Below are positions 5,082-26,029 of a stretch of DNA of 64,000 bases, one piece after another. This DNA comes from an uncultured Solirubrobacteraceae bacterium (GTDB lineage: Bacteria; Actinomycetota; Thermoleophilia; Solirubrobacterales; Solirubrobacteraceae). The notes beneath the pieces are model-generated. The model was not told the DNA's origin and made no database searches. It saw only the letters and a program-made list of their open reading frames with translations. The stretch is taken from contig CAVXYO010000001.1 of the NCBI GenBank assembly GCA_963766105.1, forward strand, positions 10,619 to 74,618, given 5' to 3'. A program made the translations under genes and the position numbers. Position 1 is the stretch's first letter, and every line of letters begins with the position of its first letter.

Positions 5082-5945
5082 ATGGCACTACCAACGTTCT
5101 TCATCATCGGCGCGCCCAAGGCCGGCACCACCAGCCTGCATCTCTACCTGGACCGCCATCCGGAGATCCAGATGTCGGCCAACAAGGAGCCGCGTTTCTT
5201 CGCCGGACCGGAGGGCGATGTCCCCTACGCACCCGGCCGTGTGAGCCGGCTGGCCGACTACGAAGCGCTGTTCGACCCGGCGGTTGCGGTGCGCGGCGAG
5301 GCGTCGACTGACTATGCGATCCACCCGCGCCGCCGCGGCGCTCCCGCGCGCATCAAGGAGCTCGTGCCCGGGGCGCGCTTCTTGTATCTCGTTCGCGACC
5401 CCGTCGCGCGCACGATCTCCCACTACAGGATGCGCGCCGCTTTTCTCGGCGAGCGCCGCCCGATCGAGCAGGCGCTGGGCGACTTCACCGACCGCCGCTC
5501 GCCCTACATCTGGCCGAGCCTGTATGCATCGCAGCTGGAGCGCTACTTCGAGCAGTTCTCACAGGAGCGGGTGCTCGTGATCGATCAGGCCGACCTGCTC
5601 GCCGATCGGCGCACGACGCTCAACGAGATCTTCTCGTTCTTGTCCGTAGACGCGGCGGCCGAGTCCCTGCGCGTGGATGAGCAACTCTCCGACAGCAGCG
5701 ACTGGCGCGCCTACTCCCCTGCATATACGAAGCTCGTCGATCGACTGGTCGTTCCCTGCACGCGGTGGGTCCCGCAGCGCCTGCGCCGGGCGACGCGCCG
5801 CGCCGTCGAGGCGCGCATGTGGCCGGCGCTGGAGACGCCGGCGCTCGACGAGCAGCTGCTCGAGCGGCTGAACGAGCTCTACCGCCCGCAGGCCGAACGC
5901 CTGCGCGCGCTGACCGGCAAGGCGTTCTCCAGTTGGGCGGTGTGA
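5082..5945 (+). CDS. Sulfotransferase family protein (paralog 1)
   Basis: 5'-PSB loop IIGAPKAGTTSL, HPEI...KEPRFF, 3'-PB motif RDPVARTISHY. Confidence 0.92.
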   Translation: MALPTFFIIGAPKAGTTSLHLYLDRHPEIQMSANKEPRFFAGPEGDVPYAPGRVSRLADYEALFDPAVAVRGEASTDYAIHPRRRGAPARIKELVPGARFLYLVRDPVARTISHYRMRAAFLGERRPIEQALGDFTDRRSPYIWPSLYASQLERYFEQFSQERVLVIDQADLLADRRTTLNEIFSFLSVDAAAESLRVDEQLSDSSDWRAYSPAYTKLVDRLVVPCTRWVPQRLRRATRRAVEARMWPALETPALDEQLLERLNELYRPQAERLRALTGKAFSSWAV

Positions 5946-5950
5946 GCGCG

Positions 5951-7051
5951 ATGGCCAGGCTGCCGGCGGTCTTGCTGCTTTGCCTCTGCTTGGCGTGCGC
6001 AGGCTGTGGAGGCGCCTCTCGAGGCCATGCGGATCTCGCCGGGCGCGACGGCCCGGCGGCCGGGCACGCCGTCGCTTCGACGGTCGCGTTCAGCCGCTCG
6101 GCCACCGCACGACACCGCCTGTTCTCGCCGTCGAGCTTCTGGAATCGGCCCGTGCCGAGCGATGCCGCGCTCGACCCCGGCTCGGCACAGATCGTCGCCG
6201 CGTTCAGCGCGCAGCTCGCGGGCGAACGAGCGCCCGGCCACTGGCCGTGGATCAACACGACCTCCTCGAGCGTTCCCGTCTACACCGTCGGGCGCGATCA
6301 GCCGACCGTCCGCGTGACGCTCGATCGTCCCTCGCGCTCGCCGGCATTGCAGGCGGCCTGGAACGCCGTGCCGCTGCCTGCCGCGGCGCGTCCCGCGGCC
6401 GGCAACGAAAAAGTCCTCGTGGTCGTGCAGCCGAGCCGCGACAGGCTCTGGGAGTTCTGGCGCATGTCGCACGGACCGTCGGGCTGGCACGCGATCTGGG
6501 GCGGAGCGATGCGTCACGTGTCCGAGAACCCGGGCGTATACGGACCGAGGGCGTGGCCCGGTGCGAGACCCGGTTGGGGGGTCTCGGCATCTTCGCTGGA
6601 GCTGCTCGGCGGTCTGATCACCCTCGAAGACCTCGCTCGCGGCAGCATCGACCACGCACTCGCGATTGCCATTCCGAACGTGCGCGCGGGGGTCTTCGCG
6701 TCGCCGGCCCAGCGCAGCGACGGGAGCTCGCCCGACCCGCTGGCCCTCCCCGAGGGCGCGCATCTGCGCCTCGACCCGCACCTGAACCTGGCGGCGCTGC
6801 ACCTGCCCCGCCTGACGGCCATGATCGCGCGGGCGGCGCAGCGCTACGGCCTGATCGTGCGCGATTACTCGCCCAACCTCGCCTTCTACGCACAGGACCC
6901 CACCCTGACCGGCGCCGACCCCTACACCGGGCCCGGCGGCTACTTCGAAGGCATGTCTCCCCGGGAACTGCTGATGAACTTCCCCTGGAGCAGCTTGCAG
7001 CTGCTGCCCATGCAGCTGCAAGCCAACCGCGTCGCCGCAGGGGGCGCGTGA
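5951..7051 (+). CDS. Uncharacterised secreted protein, probable lipoprotein
   Basis: ATG 5951. Signal with lipobox-like CAGC (MARLPAVLLLCLCLACAGCGG). The globular body contains LWEFW, LLGGLI..EDL..G.IDHAL, PEGAHLRLDP and AAQRYGLIVRD. TGA overlaps the next ATG. Confidence 0.8.
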   Translation: MARLPAVLLLCLCLACAGCGGASRGHADLAGRDGPAAGHAVASTVAFSRSATARHRLFSPSSFWNRPVPSDAALDPGSAQIVAAFSAQLAGERAPGHWPWINTTSSSVPVYTVGRDQPTVRVTLDRPSRSPALQAAWNAVPLPAAARPAAGNEKVLVVVQPSRDRLWEFWRMSHGPSGWHAIWGGAMRHVSENPGVYGPRAWPGARPGWGVSASSLELLGGLITLEDLARGSIDHALAIAIPNVRAGVFASPAQRSDGSSPDPLALPEGAHLRLDPHLNLAALHLPRLTAMIARAAQRYGLIVRDYSPNLAFYAQDPTLTGADPYTGPGGYFEGMSPRELLMNFPWSSLQLLPMQLQANRVAAGGA

Positions 7052-7914
7052 TGGCGCTGCCGACGTTCTTCATCATCGGCGCGGCGAAGGCCGGCACGAC
7101 GAGCCTTCACTTCTATCTGAGCCTGCATCCGGAGATCCAGATGTCGGCCAACAAGGAGCCCAACTTCTTCGGCGGACCGGAGAACGGCATCCCCTATCCG
7201 CCGCGGCGAGTCGGCCGCCTGCGCGACTACGAAGAGCTGTTCGATCCCAGCTTCGCCGTGCGCGGCGAGGCGTCGGCCGGCTACACCAACCACCCGCGCC
7301 GCCGCGGCGTCCCCGAGCGGATCAAGCAGCTGATACCCGACGCGAAGTTCCTCTACATCGTGCGCGATCCGATCGCACGCACGGTGTCTCATTACCAGGA
7401 CGCGTTTGCGATCGGAAAACAGCGCCGCCCCTTGAACGAGGCGCTCGGCGCGCTCGACGACCCGTACTCGCCACTGACCTGCCACAGCCGCTACGCGACG
7501 CAGCTGGAGCTCTACAGGCAGACCTTCGCGCCGCAGCGGATCATGGTGATCGATCAGGCCGAGCTGCTCTGCGACAGGCGCGCGACGCTGCGTGACGTCT
7601 TTCGCTTTCTCGCCGTCGACGACACGTTCGACACACCGGCGTTCGACGAGCAGCTCTACCGCTCCGAGGATCGGCCGGTCTACTCGGCCGCCTACTGGCA
7701 CTTCGTCGAACGCTTCGTCTCGCCGGCCACCCGGCGAATACCCGCCGCCGTTCGCACGACGGCCCGGCGAGGCCTCGAGCGCGCACTGCTGCCCAGGCTC
7801 GCCGAGCCGACGCTCGACGCCGATCGCCGCGCGGCACTCGAGGAGCTCTACCGCGGCGAGGTCGCTCGCCTGCGCGAGCTGACCGGCAAGCCGTTCTCGA
7901 CGTGGAGCATCTGA
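7051..7914 (+). CDS. Sulfotransferase family protein (paralog 2)
   Basis: MALPTFFIIGAAKAGTTSL, KEPNFF, RDPIARTVSHY. Highly similar to 5082-5945. Confidence 0.92.
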   Translation: MALPTFFIIGAAKAGTTSLHFYLSLHPEIQMSANKEPNFFGGPENGIPYPPRRVGRLRDYEELFDPSFAVRGEASAGYTNHPRRRGVPERIKQLIPDAKFLYIVRDPIARTVSHYQDAFAIGKQRRPLNEALGALDDPYSPLTCHSRYATQLELYRQTFAPQRIMVIDQAELLCDRRATLRDVFRFLAVDDTFDTPAFDEQLYRSEDRPVYSAAYWHFVERFVSPATRRIPAAVRTTARRGLERALLPRLAEPTLDADRRAALEELYRGEVARLRELTGKPFSTWSI

Positions 7915-10055: not shown

Positions 10056-11738
10056 GTGGGGCGCGAGGCCGACGCCGGCGCAGGCAAGCCGGCCGAGATG
10101 AGCAGCACGGTGGGGGTGGTGCCGGCGATCGAGCTGCGCCGGCGCCCGGCCCTGTTCGGCGCGCTGAGCGCGGCGTTTCCCGTGCGCTTCGAGGCCAGGG
10201 ACAGGCTCGGCGAACTCGACGGCCTCGACGGCCAGCTCGTGTTCGGCGATCGGCATCCGAGCGAGCCCATGGCCGCGGCGCAGGTCGCAGACGGGTGTCC
10301 GCGCCTGGTCGTCGCGGCACCTGGAGGCCGGGCGAGCACCCGTGGCGCGCAGATCGAGTTCGGCGACGACGCGGATATCGCAAAGCCGCTGCGAGGGCGC
10401 ACGCTGACGGAGCTGGCGCTGAGCACTGCGGCGAGCGCACGTCCCAGCGGGCGCGACCGCGTGCTGGCGGTCTCGGGCGCGACGCCTCTGTGGTGGGCGT
10501 GCGCAGGTGCGGCCTGGTCGCAGTTCAGCGCCTGCACGCTGGACGAGCTGCGAGACGGGGAGACGCTGCGCGAGCGCCTCAGCGTCGGGCGCTTCATGGC
10601 GCTCGTCCCACTGATCCACTTCCTGCGGCAGGCCACCGCGGGCCTTGCATGGGAGCAGCAGCCGCTGCGGGCGTCGTTCGTGATCGACGACCCCAACCTT
10701 CACTGGCCGTCGTATGGATACCTCGACTACGCCGAGATGGTCGCGCACGCCGGCGAGCACGGCTATCACGTGGGGCTGGCGATGGTCCCGCTGGACGGCT
10801 GGCTGTGCAACCGGCGCGCCGCCTCGCTGGTCGAGCGCAACCCCGCGGCCGTCTCATTGCTGATGCACGGCAACGACCACCTCGCCCGCGAGCTCGGCGC
10901 CCTGCGCGACGACCGCCGTGCCGAGGCTGTGCTCGCCCAGGCGCTGCGCCGCACGCACGCGTTCGAGCGACGCTCGGGCTTGGACGTGCAGCGCGTGATG
11001 GTGCCTCCGCACGAGGCCTGCTCTGCGAAGGCCCTGAAAGCCATGGCGCGGCTCGGATTCGACGCGGCGTGCATCGGGCGGGCACGTCCGTGGGGCGAGC
11101 GCGAGCGGCCGTCGCCGCCCAGCCGGCCGCTGGCGAGGTGGGGTCCGGCGGACATGGTCGACGGCGTCCTGCCCGTCCTCCCGCGCTATTTGATCGATCG
11201 CCCGCGCGAGGAGCTCGTACTGCGCGCGCTGCTCGGACAGCCGCTGATCCTGTTCGGCCATCACTGGGACTTCGCCGACGGCCTGGAGCCGCTCGCCGAG
11301 GCCGCCGGCTTCATCGACGGCCTCGGCGACGTGCGCTGGGAAGCGGTCGGCCAGATCGCGCGCCGCGGCTTTCGCGTGAGACGCGACGGCGAGGCGCTGC
11401 ACGTGCAGACGCACGCGCGCCGTGTGAACGTCGAGGTGCCCGAGGGAGTGCGCGCGGTGCACGTCGTGGCCGGCGAGGGCTGGGGCACGCGCCCGGCGCA
11501 GCTGCGCGCGCGCCAAGGCGGCCGTGCAAACGCCGTGCAGCCGGATCGCGACGGCGCGTTCGCAGCGCTGGAGGTCGTGCCGGGGGGACGCTTGGAGCTG
11601 GAGCTTCTGCCGCTGCGCCCCGTCGACCCTGCGGCGGTCGCGCCGGCGCGCACGGCGGCGTGGCCGATCGGCAGGCGCGCGCTGGTGGAGCTGCGCGACA
11701 GGATGCGGCCGCTGACCGGCCGCAAGTTCGCGGCTTAG
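10056..11738 (+). CDS. Hypothetical protein with a divergent polysaccharide-deacetylase (CE4/NodB-like) domain
   Basis: FVIDDP, LMHGNDH and MVPPHE resemble CE4 metal-binding and catalytic motifs. The start may instead be ATG 10098. Confidence 0.6.
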   Translation: MGREADAGAGKPAEMSSTVGVVPAIELRRRPALFGALSAAFPVRFEARDRLGELDGLDGQLVFGDRHPSEPMAAAQVADGCPRLVVAAPGGRASTRGAQIEFGDDADIAKPLRGRTLTELALSTAASARPSGRDRVLAVSGATPLWWACAGAAWSQFSACTLDELRDGETLRERLSVGRFMALVPLIHFLRQATAGLAWEQQPLRASFVIDDPNLHWPSYGYLDYAEMVAHAGEHGYHVGLAMVPLDGWLCNRRAASLVERNPAAVSLLMHGNDHLARELGALRDDRRAEAVLAQALRRTHAFERRSGLDVQRVMVPPHEACSAKALKAMARLGFDAACIGRARPWGERERPSPPSRPLARWGPADMVDGVLPVLPRYLIDRPREELVLRALLGQPLILFGHHWDFADGLEPLAEAAGFIDGLGDVRWEAVGQIARRGFRVRRDGEALHVQTHARRVNVEVPEGVRAVHVVAGEGWGTRPAQLRARQGGRANAVQPDRDGAFAALEVVPGGRLELELLPLRPVDPAAVAPARTAAWPIGRRALVELRDRMRPLTGRKFAA

Positions 11739-11792: not shown

Positions 11793-13709
11793 ATGTGTGG
11801 GATCTGCGGACTGGCGGGCCGTGCGGTCGATCGACCGCCGCTGCAGCTCGCGCCGCTGCGCGCGATGACGGCGGCGATCGAGCACCGCGGGCCCGACGAG
11901 GACGGTCATCACCTCGGCCCCGGCGTGGCAATCGGCATGCGCCGTCTGAGCGTCATCGACCTGGCGTGCAGCCACCAGCCGCTGTGCAACGAGCGCGGCG
12001 ACGTGTGGACTGTGTTCAACGGCGAGATCTTCAACTTCGCAGAGCTGCGCCGCGAGCTGCAGGACCGCGGGCACCGTCTGCGCAGCGCCGGCGACACGGA
12101 GACGATCGTGCACCTGTACGAGGAGCACGGCGATCGCTTCGCCACGCGCCTGCGCGGGATGTTCGCGATCGCGGTGTGGGACGCGGTCCACAGGCGGCTC
12201 GTGCTCAGCCGCGATCGCATGGGCGTCAAGCCGCTGTACTACGCGATCACGCCCCGCGGGCTGGCGTTCGCGTCGGAGGTCAAGTCGCTGCTCGCGGGCG
12301 GCCTGGTTCGCGCGCAGCTGGACCCGTTCGCCGCCGAGCTGTTCCTCGCCTACGGCTACGTCCCCGGGCCGCGGACGCTGTTCGCGGGCGTGAGAAAGCT
12401 CGCCCCCGCGACGACGATGGTCTGGGAGAACGGCTCGCTCGCCCGCGAATACGAGTACTGGACTCCGTGGGATGACCCGCCGGCGACGGGCGGGTCCTGG
12501 CAGGAGGACGAGGAGATCCTGCAGGGCCTGCTGCGCAAGTCCGTGGGCGACCGCATGGTCAGCGACGTGCCGCTGGGTGTGATGCTGAGCGGAGGGCTCG
12601 ACTCGAGCCTGATCACCGCCTTGATGGCAGAGCAGAGCAGCGCGGCGGTGAAGACGTTCTCCGTCGGCTTCACCGAGGACGCGCAGGCCAACGAGCTGGC
12701 CGATGCGCGTGCCGTGGCGCAGCGCTTGGGCACCGACCATCACGAGCTGCTTACCAGCGCCTCCGATCACCCGTCGCTGATCGAGCACGCCCTCTGGCAT
12801 CTGGAGGAGCCCGTCGTCGACCTGTCCTTCCTCGGCTTTCTGCTGTTGAGCCGCTTGGCGCGCGAGCACGTGACGGTCGCCCTCAGCGGCCAGGCGGCGG
12901 ACGAGCTGCTCGGCGGCTACTCCAAGCATGCGATCGCACACGCGGCAGATCGGCTCGCACGACTGCCTGGCGCGCGCCACGGCGCCGCGGCCGCCGGCCG
13001 CGGCCTGTCGCAGGCGTCCAGGGTCGGGCGTGGACTGCGTGCGCTGGGCGCCGAGGACGATGCCGAGCGGATGTTCGAGATGAGCCGCGTGATCCTCGAG
13101 GGGCAGCGCCGCGCGCTGTTGAGTCGCGAGTTCCGCGCCACTCACGATCCGTCGCGGCTGCGAGACCCGATCCGCGCGCGAGCCAGCGGGCGTTCGGCGA
13201 GCGTGCTGTGCGAGACGCTTCACCTGGACAGCAAGCTCGCGCTCGTCGACCTGATGTTCCTGTACTTCGACAAGATGTCGATGGCGACGTCGCTGGAGGT
13301 GCGGGTGCCGTTCGCGGATCACGACGTGGTCGCCTTCTGCATGGCGCTGCCCGACGACCGCCGCATCCACCGCGGCCGGCGCAAGGAGCTGCTGCGCCGC
13401 GCCAGCCGCGGCCTGGTCGACGAGGCGACGATCGACAAGAAGAAGCGTGGCTTCTTCCGCGCGGCCTCGTCGACCTGGCTGAGCACCCATCGCGACGGCC
13501 TGGTGCGCGATGTCCTGCTCGACCCCGCCGCACGTGCACGCGGCATCTTCGACCCGAAGGCGGTCGAGCGCCTGGTCGATGCGCCGATCGGCGGCGGGCG
13601 CTCGGGCGAGCCGCTGCTCGCCGTCCTGCTGCTGGAGCTCTGGCACCGGCAGTTCGTCGACGCCCCCGGCGCGGACGTGCGCCCTTTGGCGGCGGTAGCC
13701 GGGGCGTGA
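11793..13709 (+). CDS. asnB: Glutamine-hydrolysing asparagine synthase family amidotransferase
   Basis: N-terminal MCGICG, HRGPD, RRLSVID, FNGEIFN, LSGGLDSS, LSGQAADELLGGY, SLEVRVPF. Confidence 0.93.
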   Translation: MCGICGLAGRAVDRPPLQLAPLRAMTAAIEHRGPDEDGHHLGPGVAIGMRRLSVIDLACSHQPLCNERGDVWTVFNGEIFNFAELRRELQDRGHRLRSAGDTETIVHLYEEHGDRFATRLRGMFAIAVWDAVHRRLVLSRDRMGVKPLYYAITPRGLAFASEVKSLLAGGLVRAQLDPFAAELFLAYGYVPGPRTLFAGVRKLAPATTMVWENGSLAREYEYWTPWDDPPATGGSWQEDEEILQGLLRKSVGDRMVSDVPLGVMLSGGLDSSLITALMAEQSSAAVKTFSVGFTEDAQANELADARAVAQRLGTDHHELLTSASDHPSLIEHALWHLEEPVVDLSFLGFLLLSRLAREHVTVALSGQAADELLGGYSKHAIAHAADRLARLPGARHGAAAAGRGLSQASRVGRGLRALGAEDDAERMFEMSRVILEGQRRALLSREFRATHDPSRLRDPIRARASGRSASVLCETLHLDSKLALVDLMFLYFDKMSMATSLEVRVPFADHDVVAFCMALPDDRRIHRGRRKELLRRASRGLVDEATIDKKKRGFFRAASSTWLSTHRDGLVRDVLLDPAARARGIFDPKAVERLVDAPIGGGRSGEPLLAVLLLELWHRQFVDAPGADVRPLAAVAGA

Positions 13710-14776
13710 TGGCTGCCGCGTGCGCTGTGCCACGCAGCGGCGAAGGGGCGGCCGTGCGGCGCATCGTCCATCACTTCGGCCCCGACCCCGCCTACGCGGG
13801 CGGGATGGGCAGCGTCATCCGGGTGCTCGGCGAGCACGACGTGGGCGGGCGCAGCGTCGAGAGCCGCCCCACGTGGCGACCGCGCTCGCGCTTGGCGAGC
13901 GTCCCGCTGGCGCTGCGCGCCGCCCTGGCGATCCCGTCCATCGGTCGCGACGAGATCGTGCACGTGCACCTCGCGGAAAACGGCGCGTTCGTGCGCGAGG
14001 GGGCAATCGTCGCGTTCGCGAGACTGCTCGGCCGGGTCACCGTCGTGACGATCCACGGCGCGGACTTCCTGGCGTTCGCGAGCGCACACCGGAGGCTTGC
14101 GGGCAGCGTGCTGCGCCGCGCGCACCTCGTCACGTGCCTGGATGCCGGCGTGCTGGAGGCGGTCCGCTCGCTTGCGCCACGGTCGGGCGTCGAGCTGCTC
14201 GCCAACCCGGTCGCGATGGACGACCGCTCGCCGCCGGCCGACGCGACCGAGGAGCTCGTTCTGTTCGCCGGGGAGATCGGCACGCGCAAGGGTGCGGACG
14301 TGCTCTGCGACGCGTGGCGGCTGGTCAGCGAGTCGCACCCGAACGCTCGCTGCATCATGGTCGGTCCGGTACGCGACTTCGCCGTGCCCGCGCTCGAGCG
14401 CCTGGAGGTACGCAGGCCGGTCGGCGCTCAGGCGATGGCCGAGCTCGTGCGCCGCGCGCGCGTCGTCGCGCTGCCGTCGCGCTCGGAGGGGATGCCGATG
14501 ATCCTGACCGAGGCGATGGCCGCCGGGCGCCCGTTCGTGAGCACCGCGGTCGGCGCGATACCCGCGCTCGCGGGCGAGGGAGGCGGCACGCTCGTGCCGG
14601 TCGGCGACCACGTCGAGCTCGCGCGGTGCCTGGGCGCCTTCCTCGGCGACAGCGCGCTCGCGGCGGCGGCCGGCGAGCGTGGCCGGCGCTGGTGCCGGCA
14701 AACGCGCAGCGTCGAGGTGATCGACGTTCGCCTCGGCGAGCTTTATGCCGACGCGGCGCGGGCGGCGGCGCGATGA
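13709..14776 (+). CDS. Glycosyltransferase family 4
   Basis: FAGEIGTRKG, LPSRSEGMPMILTEAMAAGRPFVST (EX7E motif). Confidence 0.9.
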   Translation: MAAACAVPRSGEGAAVRRIVHHFGPDPAYAGGMGSVIRVLGEHDVGGRSVESRPTWRPRSRLASVPLALRAALAIPSIGRDEIVHVHLAENGAFVREGAIVAFARLLGRVTVVTIHGADFLAFASAHRRLAGSVLRRAHLVTCLDAGVLEAVRSLAPRSGVELLANPVAMDDRSPPADATEELVLFAGEIGTRKGADVLCDAWRLVSESHPNARCIMVGPVRDFAVPALERLEVRRPVGAQAMAELVRRARVVALPSRSEGMPMILTEAMAAGRPFVSTAVGAIPALAGEGGGTLVPVGDHVELARCLGAFLGDSALAAAAGERGRRWCRQTRSVEVIDVRLGELYADAARAAAR

Positions 14777-15966
14777 GCCGCACAGCTTCAGCGGCCGGCT
14801 CGCCCCGCCGGATCGCGCTCGTGCTGTGGAACGGCGACGTGGGCGGCGCCGAGGTGCTGACCGCTTCGCTTGCCAAGCACATGCGCTTGCAAGGCGTCGA
14901 TGCGAGCGTCGTGTTCGTCGGCCGCGGCGAGCCGCTGGCCACACGACTGCGTGACAGTGCCATCCCGTACCGCGCTCTCGGCTTCGCGCGCGGGCGCGAG
15001 ATCCTCCGCCACCCCCGCGCCTACGCGGCGGCGGTCGCGCGCGCCGGGCGCGACGGAGCGGTGCTCGTCGAGAGCGGGTTCATGGGCGCGGCGTTGCGCG
15101 CGGGCGGCTACGGCGCCACGATCGTCGCCGCCGAGCACGGCGCGATCCTCGAGCTGCCCGGATACCGGCGGCGGCGGCGAGCGTCGTGGTGGCTCTCGCG
15201 ACTGGGCGGCGCGTGGGCCGACGACGTCGAGGTGGCAGTGTCGGACTTCATCCTGCAGCGCATGCAGCGCCACCCTCACGCTTCCCGCGCACTGTGCATC
15301 TACAACGGCATCGACACGCAGCGGTTCTCCACAGCCGAGCCGGGCGATCCCCCCCGCGCGCGGGAAGGCGAGTGCGTGGTGGGATTCGCCGGCCGGCTCA
15401 TTCACGGCAAGGGGCACGACCACCTGATCCAGGCGCTGGCTCGTGCGAGGTCCTCGCGGCCGCTGCACGTGCGGATCGCCGGGGAAGGACCGCAGCGAGC
15501 GCGCCTACGAGCGCTCGCGCGCTCGCTGCGCGTCGAGGATCGCGTCGAGCTCGTGGGCCTGACGCACGACATGCCGGCCTTCTGGCGCAGCGTCGACGTC
15601 GCCGTCGTCCCGTCGGCCGAGTTCACCGAGGCGTGCCCGATGACACCGCTGGAGGCGATGGCGGCCGGCAAGCCGGTCGTCGCGACGCGCAACGGCGGCC
15701 TCCCCGAGATCGTCCTCGACGGCGTGACCGGGCGGCTCGTCGCGCCGGGCGACCCGCAGGCGCTCGCACAAGCGCTCGTGCATTACGCCGAGAACGAGCA
15801 GTCGGCCGCGCGTCACGGCGCGGCCGGCCGCACGCGAATCGAGCAGTGCTTCGACATCGGGCGCTGCGCCCGCGCGTATCTGGACCTGCTCGGCCACGAG
15901 GCCGGACAGGGCGTGTCGGCGAAGGTCAGCGCTCCGGCCCGTCAAGCCACGGGATCTCTCGGTTGA
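14773..15966 (+). CDS. Glycosyltransferase family 4
   Basis: IYNGID, FAGRLIHGKG, PSAEFTEACPMTPLEAMAAGKPVVAT..GG.PEIV.DG.TG. Confidence 0.92.
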   Translation: MSRTASAAGSPRRIALVLWNGDVGGAEVLTASLAKHMRLQGVDASVVFVGRGEPLATRLRDSAIPYRALGFARGREILRHPRAYAAAVARAGRDGAVLVESGFMGAALRAGGYGATIVAAEHGAILELPGYRRRRRASWWLSRLGGAWADDVEVAVSDFILQRMQRHPHASRALCIYNGIDTQRFSTAEPGDPPRAREGECVVGFAGRLIHGKGHDHLIQALARARSSRPLHVRIAGEGPQRARLRALARSLRVEDRVELVGLTHDMPAFWRSVDVAVVPSAEFTEACPMTPLEAMAAGKPVVATRNGGLPEIVLDGVTGRLVAPGDPQALAQALVHYAENEQSAARHGAAGRTRIEQCFDIGRCARAYLDLLGHEAGQGVSAKVSAPARQATGSLG

Positions 15967-18499
15967 GCATCGCGGCGAGCGCTTCGCCGTCCGGGCGGAA
16001 GTGCTCGCGAAGCTTCGCGAAGGCCGCCTCGGGAACGTCGTCGGGAGCTTCGCCGCGCCGCGCGTTCCACATTTCCACGCGGTAGTTCGCCACGTTGTAG
16101 GAGCGGTCCAGCGTGGCCCGCACGCCGCCCGGCAGGGCGTGCCAGAGGCCACGAACGGCGGTCGTCTGCGCGAGCCGTTCCTGCCAGGTGACGAGGTTGA
16201 GCCCGGGTATCCGCTGCTCGACCGCCGCAGCGCGATAGCGCGTGTCGATGTTCGGCGGCACGAAATCCGCGTCGACGCCGATGAAGCGAAAGACGCCGGC
16301 GAGCGTCTCGGCCGGGCGGTCGCGCAGCTCCTCGGAGAAGAGCACCTCGAGCTGCTCGTCTGCGAAGACGCGCAGGAACCCGCCGAGCAGGCGCGCGTAT
16401 TCGCCGTTGACGACGTATCCGTTAACTCTGGTGCGCACCAGGCGTGCCTGCTCGAGCGCCGCCGGCTCGATCAGCTCGTCGACCGCCTGCTCGAAGGAGC
16501 GCGACTCCACTTTGCCGAGCGCCATCATCCGGTAGTGCGAGTACGCGCGCTCGACGGGGTCGCGCAGGACGCACAGCAGCCTGACGCCGGGAAACGCCTC
16601 GCGAATGCGGCGGGGTATCTCCTCCTCCAGAGCTGTTCTGTCAGGCGAGGCGAGGCCCAGGCGCGCCTCGGAACCGACGTCGCGGTAGGGGACGCCGCTC
16701 ATGTACTCGGTCGTCGCCTCGCCCCACACCGTGCCGGGCGCGGCATCTCGCGAGACGGTCTGCAGATACCAGTCGACCCCGCGACGGTAGTTGCGATCGA
16801 TGTTGAAGAAGTAGAGCTCCTTCTCGGCGGGCAGGTGCAGCTGGGGATGTACGCGCATGTACTCGAACAGCGAGGTGGTGCCCGCCTTCGGCGCGCCGAC
16901 GATCAGAAAGCCCAGGCCGTCGCGCGCGGGCGGCCGCGGAGCAGCGATTTCGGGCGCGGCGCCGGCGGCGCCCCCGCCCCCGCTGCCGGCGTGCGCGTAC
17001 GTCGCCGTCAGGACATTCGCTCCGGCGCGCGCCCGGGCGGGGGCAGGCATGGCGCCGAGCGCGACGCCGGCCCAGCTCCACAGCAGCAGCAGCGAGAAGG
17101 CCTGTTCGTGGGGGTCGACGAATGCGACGACCAGGTAGAAGACCGCGAGCGCCAGCAGCGAGAGTTTCCACATCGGCAGGTCGCCCGAGGCCGGCGAGAG
17201 GATCGCGCCGCCGACGCCGCAGAGCAGCACGGCGAGCCAGAGCAGCGCGCCGACCAGCCCCAGTTCGACGGCGAAGGCCAGGTAGGTGTTGTGCAGCGGC
17301 AGCGGCGGCACGGCTGTCCCCACGGCTTCGCTGAGCACGTAGCCGTTCTGTGGGTAGCCGGCCGACTGGCGGAAGTAGGCGAGGCTGTCGCGCTTGTAGC
17401 GTTCCCAGCCGAAGCCTACGAGCGGCCGGGCGGCGACCATGCGCAGCCCGGCGGATGTCTGGTTCTGACGCGCCCACACGCTGTTCTCGTTGTTCACGCG
17501 GTTGGAGGTTTTGTGCGAGAGCGCCGGCGACAGCAGCAGCGCCCCGCCGATCGCCAGCGCGCACGCGACCGCCGCGGGCACGAGCAGCCGGCGCCCGCGG
17601 CGGGTAGCCAGGGCGGCGGCGGCGGTGGCGAGGATCGCGGCGATCCACACCCCGCGCTCGAGCGTGACGAAGCAGCCGAAGACGCACACGACAGCGACGA
17701 TCCCCGCCAACACGCGCGCGCCGCGTCGTCGCCAGTGCGTGAGCGCGATCGCGGCGGCGACCGCGCATGCGTACGTCGCGAACCCCTCCACGACCGAGCT
17801 CTGAAAGGGGCCGCCCGCGCGTTCGTCGGGCAGTTCGGCGTCGACTCGGACGATGTAGTGGGGGAACACCAGGCCGTGCGGGCCGAGCGACTCGAAGATC
17901 GCCGTCAGCCCGAGGTAGCCGCCGAGCGCGACGAGCGTCACGAGCAAGAGCTCGCGCTCGCGCTCGCCCGAGAACACCGCGGGCGCCAGCAGGAAGGCGA
18001 GGTAGGGCGCGACGCCGAACATGTCGACGAGGGGCAGGAAGCCGCTCTGCAGCGTCCCGGAGGCGGCCGCCGACACCAGGACGTAGATCACCGCCAGCGC
18101 CATCAGCAGGTGCACGTTGCCGATGCGCAGGCGCGGCGAGTGCGCGACGCCGGGCGCGCGCAGCAGGAACTGCAACAGCACGACGAGCAGCAGCAGCCGG
18201 TCCAGGGGCAGGCCTCCGAGCCCGATCTGAAACCACGCCCCCGAGAAGATCGAGAGGACGATCGCGGCGCACATGTTGACCGCAGGGTTCAGCTCCCACA
18301 ACCGCCGCACGAGCAGTATGCCCAGGCAGATGCAGATCGGCGTGACGATCAGCCAGTGCCCGCGAAGGCGCTGTGGCGCCGCCGCGTAGACGAGCAGCAG
18401 CGCGGGTATCGCCAGCGCGGCCCAGGCCCGCCCGGGGGGACGCCACACGGCGCGTGGGGGCGCTTGCAAGCCGTACGCCGCGAGCGCTTGCGCCCTCAA
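15926..18499 (-). CDS. O-antigen ligase/Wzy polymerase-family membrane protein fused to a C-terminal sulfotransferase
   Basis: N-terminal ~480 aa multi-TM region with ERGVWIA, M...P.VGFG and HNTYL..AVELG.VG. Ala/Gly/Pro linker. Then FLIVGAPKAGTTSL, KELYFF, RDPVERAYSHY. Confidence 0.82.
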   Translation of the reverse strand: MRAQALAAYGLQAPPRAVWRPPGRAWAALAIPALLLVYAAAPQRLRGHWLIVTPICICLGILLVRRLWELNPAVNMCAAIVLSIFSGAWFQIGLGGLPLDRLLLLVVLLQFLLRAPGVAHSPRLRIGNVHLLMALAVIYVLVSAAASGTLQSGFLPLVDMFGVAPYLAFLLAPAVFSGERERELLLVTLVALGGYLGLTAIFESLGPHGLVFPHYIVRVDAELPDERAGGPFQSSVVEGFATYACAVAAAIALTHWRRRGARVLAGIVAVVCVFGCFVTLERGVWIAAILATAAAALATRRGRRLLVPAAVACALAIGGALLLSPALSHKTSNRVNNENSVWARQNQTSAGLRMVAARPLVGFGWERYKRDSLAYFRQSAGYPQNGYVLSEAVGTAVPPLPLHNTYLAFAVELGLVGALLWLAVLLCGVGGAILSPASGDLPMWKLSLLALAVFYLVVAFVDPHEQAFSLLLLWSWAGVALGAMPAPARARAGANVLTATYAHAGSGGGGAAGAAPEIAAPRPPARDGLGFLIVGAPKAGTTSLFEYMRVHPQLHLPAEKELYFFNIDRNYRRGVDWYLQTVSRDAAPGTVWGEATTEYMSGVPYRDVGSEARLGLASPDRTALEEEIPRRIREAFPGVRLLCVLRDPVERAYSHYRMMALGKVESRSFEQAVDELIEPAALEQARLVRTRVNGYVVNGEYARLLGGFLRVFADEQLEVLFSEELRDRPAETLAGVFRFIGVDADFVPPNIDTRYRAAAVEQRIPGLNLVTWQERLAQTTAVRGLWHALPGGVRATLDRSYNVANYRVEMWNARRGEAPDDVPEAAFAKLREHFRPDGEALAAMLNREIPWLDGPER

Positions 18500-18514
18500 G
18501 CTTGCGCCCTCAAG
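18487..18514. repeat. 14-bp tandem direct repeat at a gene junction
   Basis: CTTGCGCCCTCAAG twice (18487-18500 and 18501-18514), between the Wzz-like stop and the ligase TTG start. Confidence 0.85.
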
Positions 18515-19399
18515 CTAACCGGTGGGTTCGCGCCTGACGGTGCGCCGCGCAAGCGCGAGCGCGACCAGGCAGCCGATCACGACGCCGACGAGCAGGCCGA
18601 TCAGCGCGAACTTCTGCACCTTGGCGCTGTGATCGCTGCTCGCGCTCTGGGCGCCGGCGAGCAGCGAGACGAGCCCGCTGCTCGGACCGCGCGTGGAGAT
18701 TGCGCTCGTGTACGCGACGCCGATCGCCCGCAGCTTGACCGAGGCCGCGTTCTTCTGCGCTTCGGCGGCCGCGAGCGCGGGCGAGTACCCGCGCTTGTGA
18801 CGGCTCGCGCGCGCGACTTCGGCAACGGTGCGTCGCAGCGCAATCGATGCGTCGCGGTATTCGTGCAGCAGCGATTCGGCCTGCGGGTTGGTGCTGTTGC
18901 TGTGCCCCTCGTAGGCGATCAGCGCAGCAGACGCGGTATTGGCGAGCTGGACGGCCGCGAGTTCGCTCGGTCCGGTGGCAATCACGCGAAATGCCGGGCT
19001 GGTGGGGATCGGTGAGGAGGAGAGGCGCCCGGCTGCGTCGCGCGGCGGTACGCGCAGCTTGTCCTGCACCGCGGCGAGCACCGGTTCGGCGTCGATCGCC
19101 CGGCTGAACGCGGTCGCCAGCGAGGCGGCGGACTGCACGTAGCCGAAGAAGCCCGGCGAGTTCGGGTTCACCTGCCCGACCTGAAGCGTCGCCGAGGCCG
19201 TGTAGGTGGCCGGCCTCGAAAGGCCGTACGCACCGCCCGCGAGCGCGAGCAGGAGCGCGCACAGCCCGACGATCCACCTGTGGCGGACGATCGCGCCGTA
19301 GGCGAAGCTGTCGGGCGGCTCGAAGATCCCGTGAATCGCATGCTCGCGCCCGTTGGTGGCCGCCGTGGGCGACTCGGCGCTTCTGGGGGCGGTGATCAT
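18515..19399 (-). CDS. Wzz/chain-length-determinant-like polysaccharide co-polymerase
   Basis: ATG 19399 with GAGGA RBS. N-terminal TM followed by P.YTASATL.V, a helical periplasmic region and a C-terminal TM with G...G. No kinase domain. Confidence 0.7.
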   Translation of the reverse strand: MITAPRSAESPTAATNGREHAIHGIFEPPDSFAYGAIVRHRWIVGLCALLLALAGGAYGLSRPATYTASATLQVGQVNPNSPGFFGYVQSAASLATAFSRAIDAEPVLAAVQDKLRVPPRDAAGRLSSSPIPTSPAFRVIATGPSELAAVQLANTASAALIAYEGHSNSTNPQAESLLHEYRDASIALRRTVAEVARASRHKRGYSPALAAAEAQKNAASVKLRAIGVAYTSAISTRGPSSGLVSLLAGAQSASSDHSAKVQKFALIGLLVGVVIGCLVALALARRTVRREPTG

Positions 19400-19581
19400 G
19401 GAGTCCTCGATCAGTGGCACTGGTTCGCGTTGCGTCCCGATTGCGGAGCTACAGCTAGAACGACCCATGTGCGCCCAAACTTGCGCTCGGGCGGAGCGGT
19501 CGCCGGGGGAGTTGCCCCGCGCCGGCGGCGGCTTGAGGTTAAGTACGAGCAGACGAATTATTCGACATTGACGATTACGAG

Positions 19582-22204: not shown

Positions 22205-25200
22205 TCAGCGCACCTTGACGGTCGCCTTCGCGCCGATGTTGCCGGCCTCGTCGACCGCCTGCAGCGACAGCTGACGGGCGCCCGCCGGCAGCGAAACTTC
22301 GCGGCTGAATGCGCTGCCGCCTGCAACGGGCGCGCCGATACCGATCCCGGCCGGCTTGTTGTTGACCTTTGTCAGATAGGAGCTCGGGGTGCCGCACGCG
22401 CCGTCGTCGCCGGGAGCGGTGAACGTGAGGCGATATTTGCCGCCGCCGAGTGACGCGAGCGCCACGTTCGCGGGAGCGTTCGGCGGCGTGCCGTCGTGGT
22501 CGTAGTTGCCACTGCTCTGCTGGTCGTGGCGGAAGCTCGGCCACTGGCTCTGGCAGGCGGGCGCCTGCGTCTGCCACTCGAACAGGTAGCCCTCGCGCGT
22601 GAGATCGGCCATGCGCCCGTCGGCGGCGAGCGCGGGTGGCGCGTACAGCCAGCCGCCGGTCTGCTTGGGGAAGCCCGGGATGTCCCGGCCGGTTGCGCCG
22701 TCGTAGGCGTGCAGGAGCCCCAGCCCGGTGCCGCCGACCACCTGGCTCGTCGGCAGCGTCGGATCGAGTTTGGCGACGTTGTTCGCCGACAAGAGCTGGT
22801 AGTCGTCGGTGACCGTCGGGAACGCGGGCAGCGTCACGCCGGTCGCGCCGTCGAAGGCGCCGATCAGATGGTTGTAGGGGAAGTTCTGACCGACCAGCAG
22901 CAGGTTGGCGGCCTGGCTGAGCGACAGCTCGTACTTGACCACGTCCGGCGTGCCGGTGCCGAGCAGGTCGCCGATCGACGCCGACTCGAACAGGTTGATC
23001 GCGCCCGACCGGTCGGTCGCATCGGACGCCGCCCCGAACGCCTCCGGGCCGACCTGCTGCAGCGTGCGCACGACCTGGCCGGCGGGGCTGAGCTCCTCCA
23101 GCGAGCCGCCGGTCGCCGAAGCGACGATCACCGTCTGCCCGCCGATCTTGACGATCGAGGCGTCCTGACCGGGGCCGATGAAGGGCAGCGTGTCCTGGAT
23201 GATCCCCGGCATCGCGACCGGCCAGCCGGCGAGCAGTTTGCCGCTCGCGCCATCGACTGCATACAGGCGTCCGCTGGTGCCAGCCGCGGCGGAGGTGACG
23301 CCGGCGAAGCTCACGTCGCCGCTGTTGCTCACCGCGCCGTACACCTCGTTGCTCGCCACGACGACGTCGTCGTGGCCGGAGTTGGTCAGGTCGGCGATTG
23401 CCGGCTCGTTGATCGACTCGGCGACCATCGCTTTGCCGGCGGCAGCTTCGACCGGGTCGACGAGCGCCACCGGGTACCCCTTGACGGGCTTGCCGTTCGC
23501 GCGCCAGGCGTACAGATGCCCGTCGAGGCTCGGCTCGACGATGTCCGGCTTGGCGGAGAAGCCTTCCAGGTGAGCGATCGCCGGCGTCGCCAAGAAGCCG
23601 CACTTCGGATGGCTGCTGTCGGTCTCCAGCGCCGGCGCGCAGAACGCAGGGTTGGCCGAAACGGGGAAGTGGGCGACGGGCTTGCCGTTGGCGTGCCACG
23701 CATACAGATGTGTGCCGGCCGCGGTGATCACGTCGGCGCTGCCGTTGCCGGCGAGGTCGGCGATCACTGGCCCGCGCGGAGCCTCGCGCGGCAGCCCCAG
23801 CGCCGCCAGCGCGGGGGAGCCCGAGTGACCGAGCGCCGACTGCTGCACTTCGGTCTGCACCGGCCAGCCCTTCAGCTCGCTGCCGTCCGGCTCATACGCG
23901 TGCACCTTGCCGTCCTCGCTGGGGACGATCAGCTCCTGGACGTTGTCGCCGTTGAGATCGGCGTAGCGCGTCGGCGCCTCGCCGCCCGAGCCGATCCGCT
24001 TGGGATAGCCGGGCTTCAGCGTGGGGTCGGTGAAGGTCGTGAACACGCGGCGGTCGATGCCGGTCATGGCGATTCCAGGCCCGCTGACCTCCAGCTGCAC
24101 GGTGAACTGCTTTTCAAACGGATTGGCGCCGCCGGCGGCGAACGTCGGGCCGCCTGCGTCCGGCGGCACCACGTAGCTCGCCAGCGCGCTGCGAACGGCG
24201 TTGAGGTCGATCGAGCCGAAGTCGGTGACGGTGCCGTTGGAGTCGCCTTCGCGCACGGTCGACCACGTCGACGGCGTCTCGCCGGCGCCCCACATGAGCT
24301 TCCAGTGCAGCTGGGTGCCGGCCGTGAAGCGCGCCCGCGCAAGCCCTTCGATCTCGGTGCTCGATCCGGTCAGCGGCGCGTACCAGTCCGGCGAGTCGAT
24401 TGCGGCCTCCGGCGGGATGTTCCCGGCGGCGACCGCCCCGACGGCCGCGCCGATGTCGGCGCGTCCCCAGCCGAAGTGAGGCGACCACTGCTCGTCGCTC
24501 GGCAGCGTCGCGTCGGCGCCCGGGTCGGCGACACCGGCCCCTTCGGTGTTCGCGCCGAGCACGCGCTCGGCCGTCTGCTCGAGCAGCTCACGCGTCTCGT
24601 CGGGGCGCAGCGAGATCCCGTGGTCGAGGCCCGCGCTGACGACCAGCGCCGCGGCGCCGGAGGCCTTGCTCGTGTTGACCGAGCCTGTCGGCCCCTCCAT
24701 CGCGATCGAGCTCTTGCCGCCGTACTGCGTCGTGTTGGCGCCGCGGAAGAAGGTGCCGACGGGCACGTTCGAGCCGAGGCACGCCGGCTGACCGGCGAGC
24801 CCGCACAGTTTCTGCGCCTGCACCCACTGGCTCGATTCTTCGCCGAGGCCGACGCTGTCGGGCACCGTGCCCTGGATCAACATCGCGTGCCCGTAGTTGG
24901 CCGGGTAGTTGTGGTCGCCGGTGTTCAGGTCGTCGCCGGAGAACGTCTGCACGACGCCGTGGTCGTAGGCGTACTGCGAGGCCGCCTCGGCGAACGCCGA
25001 GTGATACAGGCTCCCGTTCGCGCCCTCGATCACCTTCGCGCCGTTGTCGGTCGCGTAGGTGATCCCCAGTGCGAAGTCGTTGGCATCGGAGACGAACGTG
25101 TCCCAGGTGCGTACGGGCATGACCTGGCAGTGCGGGCAGACGCCGATCGATCCCTGGCCGTCGTTGCCCTGCTCGACCGCGTCGACGGCGCGCCCGGTCC

Positions 25201-26029
25201 CGTGGTGGTGTGCAGCGAAGTAGCTGGAGGTGTCCGTCGGGTCGTTGGTGTTGTCGAAGAAGTTCCAGCCGGCGATGTCGTTTGCATAACCGTTGCCGTC
25301 ATTGTCGAAATGCCCGCCGGCCGGACACTGCACGATCAGGTGGCTGTCGCCGTCGATCTGGCAGTTGCCGAAGACGTGCAGCAGATCCTGTGCGGTGATC
25401 AGCGAGGCCGGCCCGGTGCGCCCCGTGTAGGAAAGGCTCACGCGCGGGTCTTGTGCGTAGTCGTCGACGTTGACCACGCCGTTGCCGTCGCAGTCGTAGG
25501 CTGCGCACGAGGAGCCGTCGGCACGCTCGGGATAGGGGAGCTCGCCTGTGCTCAGGTGAATCTGATCGCGCAGCCCGCGCTCGCTCCAATCGAAGCCGTC
25601 GTCGAGGATCGCGATCACCGCGTCGGCTCGCCCGCGCTCGCCCTTCCACGCGCCCGCCGCGTTGAAGCCGGCGACCATCGGCTTGCCGGCGTGCGGGCCG
25701 GCTTTGTAGATCGCGTTCGGCGTCAGCTGCGAGGGGAACCCGAACAGGTCGAAGCGCTCGGCGTAGAAGTTCGATGAGCGATTGGCTTCGGGTTGCTGGG
25801 TGTCGGGCTCTGCCTGGTCGTAGGCCGGGTCGTTGGGCGTGTCCTGGCGCTGCACGCTGCCGTAGGTGAACTGCTGGGCGGTTTCCGCCGAGCAGGGGTT
25901 CTCAAAGCCGCCGCAGCTCGACGCGCTTGCGCCGCCCGCAGGAAGCGCTCCCAACAAGACCAGCGCGCACGCTGCCACCAGCGATCGCGCGAAGGCGCGC
26001 AGCCCGCGCCGAGTCCCCTCCCGTTTCAC
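22205..26029 (-). CDS. Secreted subtilase-family (S8-like) protein with FG-GAP/beta-propeller repeats and a C-terminal Fn3-like domain (paralog 1)
   Basis: Signal peptide, GGAGG RBS, ILDDG (Asp), HHGTG (His), TGSVNT (Ser), Ca-loop DNDGNGYANDIAGWNF, repeated ADLNGD..E / GWPV motifs. Confidence 0.85.
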   Translation of the reverse strand: MKREGTRRGLRAFARSLVAACALVLLGALPAGGASASSCGGFENPCSAETAQQFTYGSVQRQDTPNDPAYDQAEPDTQQPEANRSSNFYAERFDLFGFPSQLTPNAIYKAGPHAGKPMVAGFNAAGAWKGERGRADAVIAILDDGFDWSERGLRDQIHLSTGELPYPERADGSSCAAYDCDGNGVVNVDDYAQDPRVSLSYTGRTGPASLITAQDLLHVFGNCQIDGDSHLIVQCPAGGHFDNDGNGYANDIAGWNFFDNTNDPTDTSSYFAAHHHGTGRAVDAVEQGNDGQGSIGVCPHCQVMPVRTWDTFVSDANDFALGITYATDNGAKVIEGANGSLYHSAFAEAASQYAYDHGVVQTFSGDDLNTGDHNYPANYGHAMLIQGTVPDSVGLGEESSQWVQAQKLCGLAGQPACLGSNVPVGTFFRGANTTQYGGKSSIAMEGPTGSVNTSKASGAAALVVSAGLDHGISLRPDETRELLEQTAERVLGANTEGAGVADPGADATLPSDEQWSPHFGWGRADIGAAVGAVAAGNIPPEAAIDSPDWYAPLTGSSTEIEGLARARFTAGTQLHWKLMWGAGETPSTWSTVREGDSNGTVTDFGSIDLNAVRSALASYVVPPDAGGPTFAAGGANPFEKQFTVQLEVSGPGIAMTGIDRRVFTTFTDPTLKPGYPKRIGSGGEAPTRYADLNGDNVQELIVPSEDGKVHAYEPDGSELKGWPVQTEVQQSALGHSGSPALAALGLPREAPRGPVIADLAGNGSADVITAAGTHLYAWHANGKPVAHFPVSANPAFCAPALETDSSHPKCGFLATPAIAHLEGFSAKPDIVEPSLDGHLYAWRANGKPVKGYPVALVDPVEAAAGKAMVAESINEPAIADLTNSGHDDVVVASNEVYGAVSNSGDVSFAGVTSAAAGTSGRLYAVDGASGKLLAGWPVAMPGIIQDTLPFIGPGQDASIVKIGGQTVIVASATGGSLEELSPAGQVVRTLQQVGPEAFGAASDATDRSGAINLFESASIGDLLGTGTPDVVKYELSLSQAANLLLVGQNFPYNHLIGAFDGATGVTLPAFPTVTDDYQLLSANNVAKLDPTLPTSQVVGGTGLGLLHAYDGATGRDIPGFPKQTGGWLYAPPALAADGRMADLTREGYLFEWQTQAPACQSQWPSFRHDQQSSGNYDHDGTPPNAPANVALASLGGGKYRLTFTAPGDDGACGTPSSYLTKVNNKPAGIGIGAPVAGGSAFSREVSLPAGARQLSLQAVDEAGNIGAKATVKVR

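Follow-up and report, generated by a model that had tools for sequence, protein, structure and literature searches.

The gene described here lies in a stretch of 64,000 nucleotides, referred to as the window, from an uncultured Solirubrobacteraceae bacterium (NCBI GenBank assembly GCA_963766105.1, contig CAVXYO010000001.1, positions 10,619 to 74,618 of the forward strand). A single open reading frame (ORF) of 857 residues at 15926-18499 on the minus strand, with a TTG start and a TGA stop, joins a Wzy_C-type membrane domain to a sulfotransferase of the type that uses 3'-phosphoadenosine 5'-phosphosulfate (PAPS). Both domains score above the Pfam gathering thresholds, with Wzy_C (PF04932) matched at residues 268-422 (positions 17234-17698; 60.4 bits against a cut-off of 31.7, E-value 2.2e-16), Sulfotransfer_1 (PF00685) at residues 531-744 (52.5 bits against 22) and Sulfotransfer_3 (PF13469) at residues 532-743 (45 bits against 27). 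The motifs HNTYL (residues 403-407), ELG (412-414), GAPKAGTT (535-542) and RDPVERAYSH (646-655) are all present in the same frame. Furthermore, the GC content at third codon positions (GC3) stays at 0.83-1.0 in the frame of the ORF over the entire gene, linker included, in a genome of about 70% GC.

The gene can be divided into a membrane domain (residues 1-483, positions 17051-18499), a linker of 45 residues (484-528, positions 16916-17050) and a sulfotransferase domain (529-857, positions 15929-16915), all on the minus strand. The first 20 or so residues of the linker are rich in Arg and correspond to the C-terminal tail of Wzy, and the remainder is rich in Gly, Ala and Pro and evolves fast. 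The ORF list, the Pfam matches and the motifs thus bear out what an initial annotation of this DNA had described, namely an 857-residue ORF in which a Gly/Ala/Pro linker joins a Wzy_C-type domain to an intact sulfotransferase. That annotation had also pointed to an out-of-frame GGAG-N3-ATG in the linker (ATG at 17016), which does exist but can be discarded as a start for the sulfotransferase since it opens only the peptide MS before a stop.

Fold and predicted topology of the membrane domain

The AlphaFold 2 (AF2) model of residues 1-540, built with 120 homologs, has a predicted local distance difference test score (pLDDT) of 90.4 and a predicted template modelling score (pTM) of 0.88. It comprises about 14 transmembrane helices and an 80-residue loop (residues 324-404, positions 17288-17530, minus strand) with three short helices, which hydropathy places between transmembrane helices 11 and 12. 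When this model was compared with the PDB by Foldseek, the only significant match was the O-antigen ligase WaaL (7TPG; E-value 3.6e-5, probability 1.00, template modelling score 0.47, or 0.60 when normalised to WaaL). A long loop outside the membrane, in which Arg and His residues are conserved, appears common to the two proteins. They differ in that WaaL has 12 transmembrane helices against about 14 here, sequence identity is 17%, and the fused protein adds an enzyme domain at its C-terminus. In addition, the NCBIfam RfaL equivalog model NF012031 gives 23.2 bits against a cut-off of 277, and the domain thus does not score as a WaaL/RfaL ortholog.

Three residues of the loop, R334, R344 and H403, are conserved in at least 90% of the 120 homologs. 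H403 is also the first residue of an H-N-X9-G-XX-G pattern (residues 403-417), which we take to be the one described for ligases and O-oligosaccharyltransferases (O-OTases). In WaaL, two Arg and one His are conserved in the external loop, where they serve undecaprenyl pyrophosphate (Und-PP) binding and acceptor activation (PMC10920833). Judged by conservation rather than by superposition, the three loop residues of the fused protein fit this Arg/Arg/His set and appear compatible with it.

Regarding the orientation in the membrane, short basic loops (SPRLRIGN/RLR, ERERE, HWRRRGAR and TRRGRR) occur in alternation with two others, the acidic one at residues 203-235 and the large one. Three transmembrane helices come after the large loop, and an Arg-rich stretch follows the last of them (ARARAG in the window), which is also found in unfused homologs (AQVRRAKQARRASRG). 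The termini of WaaL are cytoplasmic. Because the basic loops and the Arg-rich tail obey the positive-inside rule and three helices follow the external loop, we infer from hydropathy, charge and the analogy with WaaL that the C-terminus, and with it the sulfotransferase, would be cytoplasmic, the catalytic loop of Wzy_C being outside. This is the topology that, according to the initial annotation, would give access to PAPS. As for the linker, the model of residues 1-540 shows a helix at residues 486-505, for which the C-terminal model gives a pLDDT below 50. The two halves were modelled separately, and each model describes its own half.

The sulfotransferase domain

The AF2 model of residues 487-857 has a pLDDT of 87.8, with the first 28 residues disordered. 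Its closest structures by Foldseek are the bacterial sulfotransferase 3rnl (E-value 1.2e-11, template modelling score 0.82 when normalised to the target), NDST1 (4.5e-11) and the heparan sulfate 3-O-sulfotransferases (3-OSTs), over a range of E-values from 1e-11 to 1e-9, and sequence matches in the PDB give the same set (3rnl, 3-OST and NDST). The domain shares its fold and its PAPS-binding motifs with NDST1, 3-OST-1/3/5 and 3rnl. It differs from them by an identity of only about 20% and by an additional helical extension of about 90 residues at the C-terminus (residues ~770-857), which is conserved in the Solirubrobacterales family.

In an alignment with 3rnl and 3-OST-5, both cofactor-binding motifs prove intact, namely the 5'-phosphosulfate-binding loop (PKxGTT, here GAPKAGTT with K538; positions 16874-16897, minus strand) and the 3'-phosphate-binding motif (RDPxxRxxS, here RDPVERAYSH; positions 16535-16564, minus strand). 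Among 92 homologs, the former motif has an invariant G535 and near-invariant K538, G540, T541 and T542, and the latter is invariant at R646, D647, P648, R651 and S654. Furthermore, the Glu of QEIHFF in heparan sulfate 3-OST-5, presumably the catalytic base, has E561 as its counterpart in the alignment, within the segment EKELYFF (positions 16805-16825, minus strand), and both K560 and E561 are near-invariant in the same 92 homologs. On these grounds, the domain looks catalytically competent.

A second fusion and the structure of the junction

Using the full-length protein as query against 5.8 billion protein clusters, one protein besides that of the window was found to carry both domains. This protein, P0002, is an 872-residue fusion encoded at locus L001 of a different NCBI assembly and is 86% identical to the window protein, so that the search for other proteins with both domains, proposed in the initial annotation, did yield one. 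The exact window protein had no record in the contig index that was searched.

Residues 1-856 of the window protein align to L001 in a single frame by tblastn, and over the 2.6 kb of a global DNA alignment the genes differ by no more than two indels, one of 3 and one of 48 nt, which both fall in the linker. At codon positions 1, 2 and 3, the differences per site between the two genes amount to 0.075, 0.041 and 0.23 in the membrane domain and to 0.07, 0.033 and 0.237 in the sulfotransferase domain, against 0.30, 0.32 and 0.41 in the linker. This pattern is the mark of purifying selection acting on both domains in the same frame, with a fast-evolving spacer in between. Within the linker, GC3 is 0.85-1.0 in frame in the window and in L001 alike, and a motif is common to both fusions (TATYAHAGSGG and RATYDGTAGSN).

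The unfused relatives make it possible to locate the ancestral junction. Their sulfotransferases start four to five codons ahead of the conserved GFL(I/V)IGAPK, as in MTAEIGFLIIGAPK and VTEIGFLVIGAAK. At this site the two fused genes read DGL (…GGC CTG) and DDL (…GAC CTC), with no start codon; the ancestral stop codon is likewise absent from both. A scan of the linkers of the window and L001 genes retrieved no in-frame ATG, GTG or TTG with a sequence resembling a Shine-Dalgarno (SD) element. From these sequence comparisons, the fusion is in all likelihood real and does not stem from an indel error.

Origin and rarity of the fusion

The named relatives are metagenome-assembled genomes of Solirubrobacteraceae, Solirubrobacterales or Thermoleophilia. 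While two loci carry the fusion, the two genes are unfused, adjacent and in different frames in nine related loci (L002, L003, L004, L015-L019 and L021). In L002 and L003, a Wzy_C protein of 510 residues is followed by a sulfotransferase of 336 residues whose ATG overlaps the stop of the former (ATGA), and the spacing in the unfused loci extends from this overlap to about 180 nt. The closest unfused relative, P0003, is 76% identical over the membrane half, and the unfused pairs (P0003 with P0274 in L002, P0012 with P0294 in L004) show 63-76% identity in both halves. The unfused Solirubrobacteraceae pairs also share the gene order of the window, with Wzz, Wzy_C and sulfotransferase followed by a convergent set of GT4, GT4 and AsnB. 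What sets them apart is that the Arg-rich Wzy tail ends in a stop and that the sulfotransferase begins at a separate ATG or GTG. Because nine related loci keep two separate adjacent genes, the fusion is best regarded as derived, that is, as a recent, rare and lineage-specific joining of neighbouring genes rather than as a distinct class of enzymes. A single event in a common ancestor of the window and L001 organisms would account most simply for both cases.

An exhaustive HMMER search of 1.84 billion representatives added two candidates only, P0179 and P0192. P0179 (locus L013, 6001-8662; ENA ERZ25039555 contig_3622, 3.49 Mb) is an ORF of 781 residues with a weak Wzy_C match and a sulfotransferase half 50% identical to that of the window, the last 85 or so residues of which lie in another frame. 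Its linker is about 95 residues long with GC3 down to 0.5-0.6, and its context differs from that of the window cluster, the gene coming directly after Wzx. We regard it as a doubtful example, which may represent a fusion of independent origin, a gene in decay or intergenic read-through. P0192 (L014) was rejected as a fusion, being located on a noisy long-read contig where Wzy changes frame five times and the tail is out of frame. For L005-L008, which carry more distant orthologous sulfotransferases, no Wzy homolog was detectable within 6 kb upstream.

The estimate of rarity is based on the full-length searches and on locus-by-locus checks of the frames. Indeed, partial queries (the sulfotransferase half or a fragment over the junction) returned neither the window protein (P0001) nor P0002, although such queries necessarily match both and P0001 exactly, and it seems that a query far shorter than a long multidomain protein fails to retrieve it. 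The lists obtained with partial queries, devoid of fusions, are consequently no evidence of rarity.

Homologs of the membrane domain carry other partners at this position. Among those with appended modules, drawn by HMMER search from proteins of 600-1000 residues, an S-adenosylmethionine (SAM) methyltransferase (P0222) or a GT4 glycosyltransferase (P0235, P0239) occupies the same C-terminal position. Six proteins (P0133, P0138, P0144, P0148, P0173 and P0224) have C-terminal extensions of 200-350 residues with no Pfam match, and P0162 has a Wzx flippase at the N-terminus of a protein of the Wzy_C clade. The methyltransferase and GT4 fusions support a cytoplasmic C-terminus that readily accepts enzymes of the pathway.

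Genomic context

The fused gene is the last of a minus-strand pair with a gene for a Wzz-like chain-length determinant, or polysaccharide co-polymerase (PCP), located immediately upstream (18515-19468, minus strand). The latter has two transmembrane segments and a Pfam Wzz match of 8.8e-9, and the order is the same in L002 and L003. A 14-nt tandem duplication (18486-18513; TTGAGGGCGCAAGC twice on the minus strand) falls exactly at the junction between the Wzz stop and the start of the fused gene. The TTG of the first copy opens an ORF of five codons whose TGA overlaps the TTG of the second copy, and this second TTG serves as in-frame start for the fused gene. In L001 the 14-nt unit occurs once, with the TTG located 1 nt past the TAG stop. 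The duplication could be real or an assembly artefact.

The pair converges, in an arrangement found as well in L002, on two GT4 glycosyltransferase genes (13754-14776 and 14770-15966, plus strand) and on an AsnB-like glutamine amidotransferase gene (11793-13709, plus strand). The 3' end of the second GT4 gene overlaps that of the fused gene by 41 nt. Further along the cluster, a domain scan identified a DegT-family sugar aminotransferase (214-1344), an initiating phosphoglycosyl transferase (Bac_transf, 1357-2169) and a GFO/IDH/MocA oxidoreductase for sugar-nucleotide modification (2166-3323), all on the plus strand, together with a Wzx-type flippase (Polysacc_synt, 3352-4968, minus strand) in which hydropathy reveals at least 10 hydrophobic segments. 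Two stand-alone sulfotransferases (5082-5945 and 7048-7914, plus strand) bring the number of sulfotransferase domains in the cluster to three. They flank a predicted lipoprotein (5951-7051) with a signal peptide and a LACAGC lipobox and no Pfam match. The cluster also encodes an NTP_transf_5 protein and a GT28-like protein. Between the GT28-like and AsnB-like genes lies an ORF (10056-11738) with a strong coding signal from about 10521, no Pfam match and no transmembrane segment.

The cluster genes scanned include no second polymerase candidate with multiple transmembrane segments. Because there is no other polytopic candidate, the Wzy_C domain is most likely the Wzy polymerase of the cluster, as far as gene content can tell.

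An extracytoplasmic function (ECF) sigma factor and a BTAD/Trans_reg_C regulator adjoin Wzz, as in L002. Two very large subtilase (S8) proteins, of about 1270 residues (22205-26029, minus strand) and about 1720 residues (30452-35608, plus strand), flank the region downstream of the cluster.

Discussion

We propose, with a probability of roughly 0.75, that the window, from a Solirubrobacteraceae-like soil actinobacterium, carries a genuine lineage-specific fusion belonging to a Wzx/Wzy-dependent pathway for a cell-surface polysaccharide that is probably sulfated, and that its product is a polymerase with a tethered cytoplasmic sulfotransferase. In such a pathway, the repeat unit would be assembled on undecaprenyl phosphate on the inner side of the membrane. 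There, the lipid-linked unit, as the presumed acceptor, would be sulfated by the tethered sulfotransferase and by the two free ones before Wzx flips the modified unit to the outer face. The membrane domain would then polymerise the flipped Und-PP-linked units outside, with the adjacent Wzz setting chain length. The last transmembrane helix would end in the cytoplasm, where a flexible linker of about 45 residues would carry the PAPS-dependent carbohydrate sulfotransferase, which is of the heparan-sulfate type. What the fusion would provide is membrane anchoring, proximity to the polymerase and a fixed 1:1 ratio. It would therefore probably tether a cytoplasmic tailoring enzyme to the polymerase with no chemical coupling of the two reactions. 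Sulfation and polymerisation would be co-localised rather than catalytically coupled, since their compartments differ and are separated by Wzx flipping. The initial annotation had proposed that polymerisation or ligation is coupled to sulfation at the membrane, and of this idea co-localisation is retained but catalytic coupling is not.

Several observations weigh against this proposal, among them those that concern the assembly. They would fit an alternative in which an indel error in the contig deleted the Wzy stop and put a separate sulfotransferase gene in frame, the organism itself having two genes. No source-genome reads were found to lie across the junction. The strains in the sole matching run (X1, a soil metagenome, 9% of words) are relatives with 90-95% identity, and even when likeness was lowered to 80% no contig of this run spanned 16,996-17,023. 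Moreover, the assembly is not error-free, as a penicillin-amidase (Ntn-hydrolase) gene at 27824-30452 is broken by a change of frame into two ORFs. The one at 27824-29548 encodes the alpha subunit together with residues 1 to ~172 of the beta subunit, and the one at 29391-30452 resumes at beta-subunit residue ~173. There is no homopolymer at the break near 29391-29400. This frameshift within the domain points either to a pseudogene or to an indel in the assembly, and it lends some basis to the caution about indel errors expressed in the initial annotation. In addition, noisy long-read contigs of related organisms do give spurious fused ORFs, such as P0192 in L014, and the relatives have two genes in different frames. 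This last point had been put forward in advance as one that would speak for two separate genes, and nine related loci are indeed separate, yet L001 is fused in one frame. For the fusion, the comparative evidence says that it is real. Indeed, L001 is a separate assembly, about 12-14% divergent, the only indels are those of 3 and 48 nt in the linker, the ancestral sulfotransferase start codon is missing in both fused genes, neither linker offers an in-frame start with an SD-like sequence, and the in-frame GC3 stays high across both. One sequencing indel cannot yield all these features in two assemblies, which makes an artefact very unlikely. We also consider it highly improbable that the fusion is real at the DNA level and of little consequence, the sulfotransferase being also or mainly produced as a free protein from an internal start. 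An in-frame ATG (M484) does occur at the end of the last transmembrane helix in the window, but it is preceded by no SD-like sequence and is replaced by GTA in L001. The only candidate in the linker of L001, GTG493, has no SD-like sequence either and is not conserved in the window, and the ancestral start position has become CTG or CTC.

The other points that weigh against the proposal relate to the function of the fused protein. The 30 window ORFs scanned include no PAPS-synthesis genes, and the donor would thus depend on housekeeping genes located elsewhere. With no more than two robust examples of the fusion available, selection has been demonstrated for each domain rather than for the fused state itself. 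The topology is deduced from hydropathy, charge and the analogy with WaaL, and the sequence is compatible with a polymerase as well as with a ligase. In an alternative reading, the fusion would be real and its Wzy_C domain would be a ligase or an O-OTase of the WaaL/PglL type, transferring the completed glycan to a lipid or protein acceptor. The only structural match being the ligase WaaL, the pattern at residues 403-417 that we associate with ligases and O-OTases, and the very name of the Pfam domain, "O-antigen ligase", would agree with such a role. It is nonetheless unlikely given that the RfaL equivalog scores 23 bits against 277, that an actinobacterium of the Solirubrobacteraceae type is expected to have no lipid A-core acceptor, and that the gene directly follows Wzz in a cluster equipped with Wzx and an initiating transferase and with no other polymerase candidate. 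Furthermore, the analogous Wzy_C proteins of the Actinoplanes wps clusters are read as Wzy (PMC13390465). Finally, true catalytic coupling would be achieved if the C-terminus were extracytoplasmic and the sulfotransferase modified the growing polymer outside. This is scarcely tenable: the domain retains intact binding motifs for PAPS, a metabolite of the cytoplasm, the positive-inside pattern, the Arg-rich tail and the three helices after the loop put the C-terminus inside, and the partners found at the same position in relatives, the SAM methyltransferase and GT4, use SAM and nucleotide sugars, both of them cytoplasmic substrates.

A polymerase with a tethered sulfotransferase can be set beside known systems. 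WadA of Brucella and Mesorhizobium is a bimodular O-antigen ligase in which a Wzy_C/GT121 domain is fused to a globular GT25 domain (PMC10920833). In both proteins, a single polypeptide combines a Wzy_C-type membrane enzyme acting on Und-PP-linked glycans with a soluble enzyme of an earlier step of the pathway. On the other hand, the partner here is a PAPS sulfotransferase and not GT25, the host is an actinobacterium without lipopolysaccharide and the membrane domain is probably a polymerase. No orthology with WadA is detectable and the RfaL model scores far below its cut-off. The fused protein shares the design of WadA and is not a member of its family. The statement of the initial annotation that no protein of such architecture is characterised is thus to be qualified by this precedent for a Wzy_C domain with a cytoplasmic pathway enzyme, while it agrees with a literature search, domain-architecture databases being outside its scope, that retrieved no paper on a fusion of Wzy_C with a sulfotransferase.

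Separate sulfotransferases are encoded in Wzx/Wzy-dependent clusters such as xss of Synechocystis 6803, responsible for synechan (PMC8205485), and wps-1 of Actinoplanes missouriensis (PMC13390465). Like the cluster described here, they group Wzx, Wzy, PCP, glycosyltransferases and at least two sulfotransferases, and in wps-1 a heparan-sulfate-type sulfotransferase, WpsH, is encoded near the Wzy_C protein WpsJ (PMC13390465). They differ in that their sulfotransferases are separate proteins. Sulfation of the product has been chemically shown for synechan only, as opposed to wps-1 (PMC8205485, PMC13390465). Compared with all these systems, the fusion is a rare, real and modest variation on an established design, mechanistically unsurprising, and reveals no new enzymatic mechanism.

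A broader proposal, which we consider speculative and rather doubtful, is that the fusion acts as a "Rosetta stone" revealing that the cytoplasmic tail of Wzy docks a tailoring enzyme (the sulfotransferase here, a methyltransferase or GT4 in relatives) throughout the family, in several hundred Solirubrobacterales clusters. One machine would then join cytoplasmic finishing to polymerisation outside, and sulfated surface polysaccharides would be widespread in soil Thermoleophilia. If such a docking complex exists, possibly only fully modified units reach the polymerase.

At a more limited scale, the fusion is natural evidence for a sulfotransferase working with a Wzy polymerase at the membrane, and it points to a docking role, on the cytoplasmic side, for the C-terminal tail of Wzy. 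A membrane-anchored sulfotransferase of this kind may also offer a ready-made design for the engineering of sulfated polysaccharides. Apart from cyanobacteria and some marine bacteria, few bacteria are considered to make sulfated polysaccharides. The possibility of such a polymer in an actinomycete was raised only in 2026 (PMC13390465). The fusion also draws attention to sulfated polysaccharides on the surface of soil Thermoleophilia, and the three sulfotransferase domains of the cluster, together with the hundreds of related clusters in Solirubrobacterales metagenomes, suggest that this trait is common in these abundant and poorly cultured soil bacteria.

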